Source: Octopus vulgaris
Taxonomy: Eukaryota
Length of the DNA: 64,000 nucleotides
Reading direction: 5' to 3'
NCBI GenBank assembly: GCA_951406725.2
Contig: OX597832.1
Coordinates: 14,384,001 to 14,448,000 of the forward strand
Made by a program: the position numbers and the translations under genes. The notes below the pieces were generated by a model. That model made no database searches. It was not told the DNA's origin and was given only the letters and a program-made list of their open reading frames with translations. Below, in pieces: positions 8,652-32,252 of this stretch. Within the stretch, counting starts at the first letter, position 1, and each line of letters opens with the position of its first letter.

Positions 8652-10908
8652 AAACATCTGTCCTGACGGAATATACCTATAGTTTTTTAACAGACAGCAG
8701 CATATTCCCTAATGAACAGAAAGGATGTAAACGTGGATCCTACGGCTGTAAAGACCAACTACTCATCAATAAGATGATCTTAGAAGATTGTCACAAACGA
8801 CACAAAAACTTATCAATAGCCTGGATAGACTATAAAAAGGCTTTTGATAGCCTACCACATAGCTGGATTAGGAAATGCCTTGAAATGTATAAGATAGCAC
8901 CAACTCTGCGAAACTTCTTGACTGTAAGTATGAGATCATGGAGAACCACACTAACTCTGAACAGTGACAGTGAATCCCTAAATGCTGGGGATGTAAAAAT
9001 TTCGTGTGGCATTTTCCAGGGTGACTCACTGTCACCACTCCTCTTTTGTTTATCCTTAATACCTCTCTCAAAGCTGCTCAATGACGCGCAGTACGGGTAT
9101 AAAATGTTTGATAAAAATATAAATCATCTCGTTTACATGGATGATTTAAAGCTTTTGCAAAAAATGATCAACAACTCAAGGGCTTACTAGCGATAGTCAA
9201 ACAATTCAGTGACGACATCAGAATGCAATTCGGCCTCGATAAATGTGCAAAGGCTACCTTTATCAAAGGAAAAATGACAGAAACATCTAACGTTAACCTT
9301 GACCAACAGAATGTCATAAAAGAACTAGACCCAGCGGAGAGCTACAAGTACCTAGGGATAATTGAAGGGAACCGAATAAGGCATTCAGAGATGAAGGAAA
9401 GGATCAGGAGAGAATGCTATCGAAGAGTGAGAGCAATACTCAAGACAGAGCTGAATGCAAGAAACAGGATCGAAGCAATCAATGCATTAGCTATACCAGT
9501 CGTGACTTACAGTTTCAATATTGTTAACTGGTCAATTACTGAAATATGTCAGCTCGACAGAAAAATAAGGAAACTGTTGACAATGCATAGAATGCACCAC
9601 CCTAAGGCAGATACAGAACGACTCTATCTGCCAAGAAAAGAGGGAGGCCGTGGTCTTTTGCAACTGGCAATAACAATGAAGATTGCTACAATTGGCCTAG
9701 ACACCTACCTGAAAAACTCTGAGGACTGGATGCTAAAACTTGTCTCAAAACATGAAAACAAGAAAGCATCATACTCAGTCACAAAACAGGCAAAGGAATA
9801 TCTAAGTGAACTCCGAATACAACCAATTTCGGAATTAGAGATAGATATACAAGAAACAAGCACAGAAAAAGCTAGGCGCATGAAAACCCGTGCCAAAACT
9901 GCGGCCTTAGATATTCTGAATAATAAATGGCAAGAAAAACCTCTCTATGGCAAATACCCAAAGAGAGCGAATAATGCAGATATCGACAAAGCCCTGACCC
10001 ATCAATGGCTAATGGCCTCTGGCTTAAAATCTGAAACAGAGGGGTTTATCATAGCAGCTCAAGATCAATGCCTACCAACAAGAAACTACCAGGCCAACAT
10101 ATTAAAGATCAGAAGCAGTCCAACGTGTCGTGTATGCAAGCAACAAAATGAAACCATTGACCATGTGGTCTCCAAGTGCAGTCTTCTAGCGCCTACAGAG
10201 TATCTCAACAGGCACGATAGAGCTGCACAATATATTCACTGGGTAATCTGTAAAAACCTGGATTTGCCCCATGAAAAAAACTGGTGGGAACACAAACCAC
10301 CCCCAGTGCTTGAAAATGACCACATCTCACTCCTCTGGAACTTCACCATTCAAACTGACAGGAAGATAGATGCAAATAGGCCAGACATCATATTGAAAAA
10401 CTTCAAACAAAGAACATGCCTCCTCATTGATATGACTGTCCCAATCGATATAAACGTATCTGTCAAGACCTACCAAAAACTGAGCAAATATAAAGATCTT
10501 GAAATAGAAATCAGCAAAATGTGGAAGCTGAAGACTAAAACAATACCTGTTGTCATAGGTGCCCTGGGAATGATAGCAAAAGGGGCTGATAGCTACCTAA
10601 CTCAGATACCAGGAAACCCAAAAATGGCAGAAGTTCAAAAGATAGTGCTCATGGGAACTGCTCATATCCTACGCAAAATACTCTATATTTAATCTCAAGT
10701 TTTAAAACAAAAATAATTTTCGGTTTAAAAAAAAAAAAAAAACCTTTTTTTTTTTTTTTAGACATTCATTAGTACAACATCCCCACCCCCCAAATATATG
10801 GCACACTAGGCATAACAACAACATGAACTTCCAACCCTGTTGTCTCTTGAGGTCTCTGGGTGAGACTTGGCGCCAACTTGTACAAATATAAAGCAAAAGT
10901 CAAACATA

Positions 10909-29945: not shown

Positions 29946-30910
29946 CAAATCATTTAAACGTATCATGGTCTGTTTCTCATCTCTCTCTCTCTCTCATTCT
30001 CACTCTCTCTTCCTTTCTCTCTCATCCACTCTGTGTGCGTTGCTTCTCTTTCCTTCTCCCCCTCTCTCATCAACTTCTCTCTTGCTTTCTACCTCTCTGG
30101 CTTCCACCACTATGTCTCTTCCCATTATCATATAACCCGTAACAATTCTATCATCTCTGTCCTCTACATTTCTTTGACTTTGACTGATTCAGTAACGCTT
30201 ATCTCAGGCTCTGCCTACAACAAACGTTTCGTTTCGTCGCAGTTCAGTTTTTTCACCTTTCCGTCAATCTATCTATCGTACTTTTCGTTTCCACTCCACT
30301 AGAATATTTTTTATGCGTTAACTCTTATGCGCGTCATGTATTTTTCTGTTAGTAGAGTAAGAAATTGGACTAACCATCTAAAGGATGAAAATATCTGTTT
30401 TTTCTACCGGTATAAATTGCCTATGATAACCCTGGGAATACGTAAACAAGGATACTATACTCATAGGATACAAGCAATAACAATGTTTGTATGTGTTTGC
30501 GCGCGTGTGTGTGCATGTGTATGTCTTTGTGTCTGCTAGCGTGTCTAACAGCATTTTCTGCTTCCAATGTCCCTCGATGTGTTACTCTGCAAAATGGCAT
30601 GGGCCAAATATATTAAGACTTCTTTCCTCATCTCGAGGTCCTTCCTTTTCTGTTCTCTTTTATTTCATGTATTTTTCTTCTCTCCGATGAAGCTCCATGT
30701 ACCAGATTGGATGAGCAATGGAATATCATTCTAAGGAATTTGTTTCGCACCGCTGAGGGCTATCGGGAGCAAAAACGACTGTTAGAAGTGATAAAGATTT
30801 GTATCAAATTAATAATCGATGGTAGTCAATAGCAGCCACAGTTTTTTGAACAAGACGTTTCTCCAATTTCTGGTTAATTTATGTTTGTATGTGTGTATGT
30901 ATAGCTTATA

Positions 30911-31002
<92 letters not shown>

Positions 31003-31006
<4 letters not shown>

Positions 31007-31575
31007 ATAGTTATCGCCATACTAATATAGCAGTCTTATAAATATAAGTTCGCTACTGACTGTCCCAGTTCGAAGGCTTTAGCTACCTAGTATCAGTGGA
31101 ATACATCCACTTGTTTTCAATAATAGAAATATTAAAATTACCAGGTCTCTCTAAAGGAGATTACGACAGCGTTACTGGAAATTAATAGTTATCGCCATAC
31201 TAATATTTCTATTATTGAAATCAAGTGGTTGTATTCCACTGAAACTAGGTAAATAAAGCCTTCCAACTGGGACAGTCAGTAGCGACACCTGCTGGGTCTG
31301 ACTACGCTGCATTGATAAGGGGCAACAACCCTGAAACGTCGTCTGTAGCTGTCTGACTGGCAGGATGAAGCGGCTGACCTCCATTGTTCGAAGGCTTACA
31401 ATGGACGCAGTTTGTGAGTCAAATAGCTAGCTTAAGGCGATGGCCTCATGGAGCTAATCAGCGACAGCTTTAGTCTTATATTTAAAAGACTGCCATATTA
31501 GTATGGCGATAACTATCAATTTCCAGTAACGCTGTCGTAATCTCCTTTAGAGAGACTTAGTAATTTTAATATTTC

Positions 31576-31580
<5 letters not shown>
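31003..31580 (+). mobile_element. Non-coding split-inverted-repeat element carrying a hammerhead ribozyme (candidate non-autonomous DIRS/retrozyme-like retroelement)
   Basis: Inverted repeat pairs 31003-31048/31475-31520, 31050-31134/31201-31285 and 31121-31206/31495-31580; direct repeat 31003-31028/31181-31206; bounded by (GA)n and (TA)n. Confidence 0.7.
31288..31364 (+). ncRNA. Type I hammerhead ribozyme, U3-A8 core variant; predicted cleavage after GUC at 31343
   Basis: Stem I GCUGCA/UGUAGC (extended by GAC/GUC, GUC/GAC, CCUGC/GCAGG); core UUGAUAA; stem II GGGG(CAACAA)CCCU; GAAA; stem III AC(GUC)GU; C17. Confidence 0.78.
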
Positions 31581-31664
<84 letters not shown>

Positions 31665-31754
31665 GTATATATATACAGGCACACACACACACACACATAT
31701 ATATACATGTATATATGAATGTATGTATGTTTATATGTATATTTTGCATAAACA

Positions 31755-31789
<35 letters not shown>

Positions 31790-32252
31790 GAATATATAGA
31801 TATTAAATACGTGTGTTTGTACACATGATCATTTAGACTAAGATTAATTGAGTCGAGTCGCACTCCCATGAACAGCAGCACGGTTTGAAATATCTCAAAT
31901 AATATACCATTTTCAGAAGGAATAACATAAGCAAAAAAGAAACCCTCAATATTTTGAAATATAGAGGAGTGAATATATGTACAAAAGACGTGATGAGCAT
32001 GATTTCATCTCATTTTATCGTTCGACCAAAGTGAATCTAGCTGTAACAATAACAAATATCGGTATTTTATGCAAATAACCTCTGACAAATGAGAATGTGT
32101 AACATATTTCTATGTTTAAGTGTAACTATATAGTTGCCATTAGTGTCCGAACTTTGTCGTATTTTGTATTCAGTTTTATGTGCAAAGAAACTATTAAATA
32201 TACCAGAGACCATCTGCATAAATTCACAAAAATGTCATATATGAAGACATGT

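Follow-up and report, generated by a model that had tools for sequence, protein, structure and literature searches.

Insertions of Penelope-like elements (PLEs) have been described as 5'-truncated partial tandems accompanied by an inverted truncated copy, with a 'tail' of 30-40 bp at one end and a bias towards microsatellites (PMC8557442). Their inversions are reported to be mostly head-to-head, and their pseudo-LTRs to be sufficient for mobilisation in trans (PMC3846280). In vitro, the tail corresponds to the stretch between two internal start sites of the reverse transcriptase (RT), and cutting and extension take place on both strands of AT-rich DNA, a behaviour described as unique to PLEs (PMC11167929). 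The U3-A8 variant of the hammerhead ribozyme was first reported in these elements as well (PMC4209133). A link from PLEs to the animal retrozymes has been argued from co-occurrence, shared hammerheads and pseudo-LTR phylogeny, in sources that call the mechanism itself open (PMC7229834; bioRxiv 2026.07.22.740005).

We analysed a hammerhead-bearing locus in a 64-kb stretch of Octopus vulgaris DNA, referred to here as the window. An initial annotation had read its 578 bp (31003-31580) as a new ORF-less element of interlocking inverted repeats, with the module order A-B-C-A-B'-[hammerhead]-A'-C'-b'. Very probably, the locus is instead one insertion of an ORF-less 366-nt hammerhead repeat, likely copied in trans by a PLE RT/GIY-YIG endonuclease, and its layout is that of a direct monomer plus a 5'-inverted arm with a private deletion. 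In the features below, M1-381 equals window 31201-31581, that is, the 366-nt monomer and 15 nt from the beginning of the unit after it; E1 and E2 are two fixed 3' ends about 60 nt apart.

30907..31002, no strand: left flank, a (TA)n then (AG)n microsatellite
31003..31048, minus strand: outer end of the inverted arm, M275-320 (module A), stopping at E2 without a tail
31039..31062, minus strand: junction left by a deletion in the inverted arm, where M85 abuts M275
31050..31134, minus strand: inverted arm, M1-85 (module B)
31120..31206, minus strand: inverted arm, M295-381, crossing the monomer-monomer junction into M1-85 (module C and the 'second A')
31201..31206, no strand: head-to-head inversion junction, the arms overlapping by 6 nt
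31201..31566, plus strand: one full 366-nt monomer
31256..31397, plus strand: predicted long rod with the hammerhead at its tip
31306..31349, plus strand: type I hammerhead, U3-A8 core variant, called from descriptor and covariation
Parts of the hammerhead, plus strand: stem I 31306-11/31344-49; core 31312-18; stem II 31319-32; GAAA 31333-36; minimal stem III
31517..31581, plus strand: 'tail' of about 61-65 nt, from E2 (M316-320) to E1 (M381), its last 15 nt being the start of the next monomer
31582..31803, no strand: right flank, a (TA)n microsatellite

The inverted pairs lie where the initial annotation had placed them. Self-BLAST aligned 31003-31048 with 31475-31520 at 93% identity and 31120-31206 with 31495-31581 at 97% (E 2e-36), and 31050-31134 pairs with 31201-31285 at 93%. 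As also claimed, the pairs are partly mutually exclusive: the MFE fold pairs A with A' and B with B' and leaves C mostly unpaired. The module order holds as far as the pairs are concerned, but the 'second A' is not a module of its own; it is a 26-nt exact repeat (31003-31028/31181-31206) that belongs to pair C. Both boundaries are sharp and microsatellite, with (TA)n plus (AG)n occupying 30907-31003 and a further (TA)n starting at 31579, and no stop-to-stop frame of 100 aa lies within the element, in agreement with the absence of an ORF; the frame scan returned one TA-repeat frame, 31516-32004, that overlaps the element's end. The left-flank microsatellite is likely the insertion target, and no target-site duplication is discernible at that flank.

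Placed on the monomer, the window copy consists of M275-320, M1-85 and M295-381, all inverted, followed by direct M1-381; its left 204 bp are thus one inverted arm. This arm runs from M295 to M381/M15, continues as far as M85, resumes at M275 and ends at M320, the deletion at this jump taking the hammerhead out of it. Every module of the initial annotation derives from a single circularly permuted monomer, of which some segments are read forward and others in reverse. The jump junction M85/M275, which makes the layout, matched only once in the 2.8-Gb genome at up to one mismatch. Among the copies retrieved by a genome search, the monomer and both 3' ends recur and the module order does not, a result that the initial annotation had itself listed as speaking against its reading, and the distinct architecture that it had considered therefore has to be given up. 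The 'interlocking' layout is an accident of one insertion, and the 578 bp are not the element.

What recurs in the genome is the monomer. When the copy was used as a 579-bp query against the window's own genome, 2,572 candidates were returned, the best 40 of them were scored, and most top matches cover only query 199-579, equivalent to window 31201-31581. The monomer has a GC content of 0.43 and is repeated head to tail, in one array for 5.5 units. Exact patterns, which give lower bounds, detected at least 969 monomer-to-monomer junctions and at least 2,283 hammerhead cores genome-wide, and the reversed control of each gave none. Folded as a circle, the monomer reaches -117.1 kcal/mol (z -4.7 relative to 100 dinucleotide shuffles). 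Several subfamilies exist, each with insertions of its own, and an older one, 75-80% alike, displays the same insertion anatomy. No PLE ORF was found adjoining the monomer copies examined. A contig-derived lead to an autonomous partner turned out to be a shorter ORF-less sister family; the sister family in L095 (G000:C30:16068644-16071673) shares the tail region and the hammerhead, lacks about M163-290 and terminates at the E2 motif, in front of (TA)n.

The presence of a hammerhead was upheld, since a type I descriptor matched once in the 64-kb window, at 31306-31349 on the plus strand, and never in 10 block-shuffled windows. Its core reads U3...A8, not C3...G8, and cleavage is predicted after C31343. 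Rfam recognised no hammerhead in the window, either at gathering thresholds or at E<=10 (its miRNA matches at E<=10 are long-hairpin artefacts with scores far below gathering), and the ribozyme call therefore rests on the descriptor together with covariation. In 33 sequences from across the subfamilies, 96.4% of 495 cells pair, compared with 29-47% in slid controls whose partners were moved by 1-3 columns, and in 7 of the 15 pairs both partners have changed, with the qualification that cell counts are inflated by sequence kinship and that 33 of 500 shuffles reach the same pair count. Apart from N7, the core is invariant in these sequences, whose subfamilies are 75-95% alike. Loop III is either missing or reads GC, AT, TA or GTC, and each variant leaves a self-complementary stem III segment, in the case of GTC with one central U-U. 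Judged from its sequence, this segment would fit the dimeric cleavage described for such ribozymes. In Xenopus, eight of nine predicted retrozyme dimers showed no cleavage in vitro (bioRxiv 2026.07.22.740005).

The anatomy of the family was surveyed at 90 loci, comprising the 30 most window-like, the first 30 of the 969 junction matches and the first 30 of 99 tail-variant matches; 10 overlapping loci were dropped, which left 80 distinct insertions including the window's own. These were chosen by similarity or by junction and tail patterns and are a non-random set, and their ends are BLAST boundaries. Inverted insertions account for 48 of them, tandem for 21 and single for 11. The 3'-type outer ends (n=128) fall at E1 (M372-381) in 67 cases, at E2 (M310-324) in 51 and elsewhere in 10, and 85 of the 128 are followed within 20 nt by a TA-type repeat, a count taken without a background rate. 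The 32 5'-type outer ends are scattered from M1 to M352. By script, E1 is combined with E2 in 40 of the 48 inverted insertions, E2 with another end in 6 and E1 with another end in 2, and in no case does E1 meet E1 or E2 meet E2; the first count should read 39, because the 'E1' of one locus (L091) was miscalled, its arm continuing into the next monomer. All inversion junctions but one are head-to-head (47, with 1 tail-to-tail). Partial tandems with variable 5' truncation occur among the copies; arrays start at E1 or E2 and finish at ordinary 5' truncations, and at the junction-selected loci the tail reads through into the next monomer, never into an ORF.

This is the anatomy of Penelope-like elements, whose RT the initial annotation had named only as an aside. 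One PLE protein encoded in the genome shares 99% identity with a protein that NCBI assigns to Octopus vulgaris. Two PLE families of the same genome are an internal positive control for the two-end arrangement. Scored by eye at 30 loci per family, PLE-A stops at one site in 16 cases and at another, about 58 nt away, in 13, with 1 read-through; for PLE-B the counts are 14 and 13, at sites about 38 nt apart, with 3 read-through. All of these ends stand before (TA)n. PLE-B (L131, L157-L186), a second young autonomous PLE with 784-aa frames, carries a U3-A8 type I hammerhead. PLE-A is young, high-copy and autonomous, with copies 98-99% identical, and in full copies has a 1312-aa frame with an asparagine-rich insert and a zinc-finger-like linker as in Neptune/Nematis. 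Within the window it occupies 1-2910 (ORF part 1187-2227) as the right arm of a large tandem/inverted insertion, ends at the inner fixed end before (TA)n at ~2908 and contains two identical 181-bp tandem units at 222-585; more copies lie up to 14 kb upstream. Its pseudo-LTR includes a hammerhead-like motif at 2747-2790 that has C in place of the expected A9 at the end of its first core box and matched none of the hammerhead descriptors used.

The initial annotation had also envisaged longer copies in which the monomer termini would enclose an ORF for RT, RNase H, tyrosine recombinase or PLE RT, and none was found in protein searches that each scored the best 43-131 of thousands of candidates. 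Nor did any autonomous PLE sharing the monomer's sequence appear among the PLE fragments of L096 or the five sampled families (PLE-A; L127-130; L131-132/L157-186, which is PLE-B; L133-156; L187/L194), none of which shares sequence beyond chance. Local alignments between monomer and PLEs stayed within the shuffled range, with 10-59 of 100 shuffles scoring at least as high, and the AT-rich motifs common to the monomer and PLE-A at both ends were too short to count. Hammerhead pairs 4.6 and 6.6 kb apart, considered as pLTR-ORF-pLTR, proved to be separate insertions around LINE-type fragments or to hold no ORF. As no ORF combining RT and GIY-YIG was found in or beside the copies examined, the monomer family is not an autonomous PLE. 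The PLE frames of L096, close to a sister-family insertion, are broken and of another type, presumably Hydra-like by their motifs.

We propose that tandem copies would be transcribed and that the hammerhead would cut, probably as a dimer, to release monomers, which a host ligase may circularise. A PLE enzyme would nick both strands of an AT-rich target, cDNA synthesis would start at two internal sites, one per strand, and the cDNAs, extended across the monomer junction and ending at differing positions, would be joined head to head. The weakest step is the nature of the template, for which we lean only slightly towards a circle over an uncut multimer. Among 133 5' boundaries, from a sampling that favoured read-through copies, only 5 lie at the cut site (M139-143), and a linear monomer cut at the hammerhead is therefore disfavoured as the main template. 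Another 16 lie at M179-189, the 3' base of the predicted rod and the commonest 5'-truncation point. Boundaries at the rod base and not at the cut site imply that the template, whether circular or an uncut multimer, usually ran past the cut site. The median difference between units of the same insertion is 1.8% (53 tandem pairs) or 2.5% (58 inverted pairs), and that to other insertions 11% and 13%, respectively; within-insertion distance is smaller than that to the nearest other insertion in only 27 of the 53 tandem and 11 of the 58 inverted pairs, so that a single template is supported at the level of the subfamily only. In the array at L068, 5 of 6 units are identical. A contig joining 31566 back to 31201, from a sequencing run presumed to be RNA, was discarded as evidence of a circle, since a genomic tandem explains it equally well.

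A serious contender, though not one that we consider probable, is an equally PLE-dependent process in which the template is a linear uncut multimer or a read-through transcript, no circle forms, and the hammerhead is a passenger or acts elsewhere. Hammerhead mutants were indeed without effect on insertion of an anole PLE in vitro (PMC11167929), autonomous PLEs build the same tandems, and homogeneous arrays such as L068 equally fit a homogeneous source array. A linear template sits less well with a hammerhead kept by compensatory change across the diverged subfamilies, with a monomer that folds as a stable closed structure, and with mussel repeats of the same size, which give abundant circles (PMC7229834). 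If a circle is preferred, one may go further and picture the family as an independent circular RNA parasite, devoid of recognisable sequence kinship to the living PLEs of its host, that would recruit the PLE enzyme by mimicking its two-site initiation element; the enzyme would roll round the 366-nt circle, writing the arrays and both inverted arms in one event. We find this bolder proposal conceivable but doubtful. Its candidate helper would be PLE-A, which has a tail of about 58 nt and part of one copy in the window. Were the proposal true, the E1/E2 footprint would prove directly, and for the first time from genomic sequence, which enzyme moves animal retrozymes.

It is very unlikely that the monomer is the solo pseudo-LTR of an extinct PLE, with arrays grown locally by unequal crossing-over. 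Such an origin has been put forward for some retrozymes (bioRxiv 2026.07.22.740005), and the L068 units are near-identical; however, the copies are dispersed and number in the thousands, several subfamilies have each made insertions of their own, and neither the arrays, which begin at E1 or E2 and end at ordinary 5' truncations, nor the tails, which at junction-selected loci lead into the next monomer and never into an ORF, agree with it. We regard it as largely refuted. Even less likely is mobilisation by a LINE-type, non-PLE retrotransposon, with the inversions produced by twin priming in the manner of L1. LINEs are present in this genome: window 8654-10692 is a LINE-type fragment with an RVT_1 match (E 1e-15), a frame change and a 515-aa frame with a weak zf-RVT match, and it ends in (AAT)n. 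Inversions by twin priming are known for L1, and LINE twin priming leads to one fixed 3' end and an internal inversion. In the octopus insertions, by contrast, both outer ends are of the 3' type and lie at two internal fixed sites, an arrangement called unique to PLEs (PMC11167929).

Hardly any credence can be given to the DIRS-like reading of the initial annotation, which assigns the interlocking repeats the roles of ITRs and ICR in making a circular DNA intermediate that a tyrosine recombinase would use: although internal stretches are complementary to both ends of the window copy and the genome has tyrosine-recombinase genes (7 matches), the layout is single-copy with a freely varying left boundary, the termini are not mutual inverted repeats and pair with two distinct stretches inside the copy, all 7 recombinase loci represent a single 2.4-kb element that has ends of its own, and the sole recombinase copy beside monomer DNA is nested in an ordinary inverted insertion. 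Its description as a non-autonomous hammerhead retrozyme stands, while the link to DIRS fails on termini, ICR and layout. The 7 PF00589 matches, among 10 candidates, all belong to the one element, whose ends are unrelated to the monomer, in a search that diverged DIRS recombinases could escape. The recombinase copy flanked by monomer DNA was rejected as a partner, being this nested insertion. The 2.4-kb tyrosine-recombinase DNA element (L217-L223, L226:2168-4530), which we take to be Crypton-like, has 7 copies 93-97% alike, no RT was seen in it, and the nested copy lies inside a retrozyme insertion, at its inversion junction.

Compared with known systems, the likeness of the window copy to DIRS elements as outlined in PMC6681497 is only superficial and lies in its nested inverted repeats; it has no terminal ITR pair, two separate stretches in place of a single ICR and no fixed layout, and no partner was found for it among the recombinase matches. 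From plant LTR retrozymes the octopus monomer differs by its tandem layout and type I topology. With the animal non-LTR retrozymes (Cervera & de la Pena 2020, PMC7229834; Li et al. 2026, bioRxiv 10.64898/2026.07.22.740005), such as the mussel repeats of 350-390 bp, it has in common a type I hammerhead, a non-coding tandem monomer of 150-450 bp, a GC content below 50%, thousands of copies, a self-paired fold and a proposed dependence on PLEs. It departs from them in the minimal U3-A8 core, as described for PLE hammerheads, and in its fixed double ends, tail and head-to-head inversions, which are absent from the non-LTR retrozyme descriptions in the available portions of those two papers; a word search found neither 'inverted' nor 'opposite' in PMC7229834 and neither 'tail' nor 'inversion' in bioRxiv 2026.07.22.740005. 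The monomer is also without homology to the sampled PLE pseudo-LTRs, whereas 24 of 57 Xenopus retrozyme families are reported to match known elements, nearly all of them PLEs (bioRxiv 2026.07.22.740005). Full-text literature searches, which took in few subscription papers and no supplements, brought up neither a cephalopod retrozyme nor any account of retrozymes with tails or inversions, and the family may already be catalogued in Repbase/Dfam.

With the PLEs, as characterised in PMC3846280, PMC8557442 and PMC11167929, the octopus monomer shares partial tandems, 5' truncation, a head-to-head inverted arm and a tail at one end, along with a hammerhead in the repeat, (TA)n targeting and occasional internal deletions. 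It differs from them in that it has no RT/GIY-YIG ORF and in that the repeat is the whole element; its tail of about 61-65 nt exceeds the 30-40 usual for PLEs, that of PLE-A in the same genome being about 58. The non-autonomous Chlamys PLEs, for example MRC1, are presented as green-algal, mostly without hammerheads and generally resembling their autonomous families at the 3' end (PMC8557442), a kind of partner that was not found for the octopus family.

In conclusion, the octopus monomer represents, by its sequence, a family new to the animal non-LTR retrozymes, a known class to which it belongs on every feature tested, and it is likely mobilised by a PLE. Its two-end 'tail' footprint, with the strict pairing of E1 and E2, connects a retrozyme with the PLE enzymes, and young intact PLEs are present in the same genome. 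The family thus provides a concrete substrate, together with candidate enzymes, for asking whether a retrozyme is copied by a PLE protein and, if so, whether the template is a circle.
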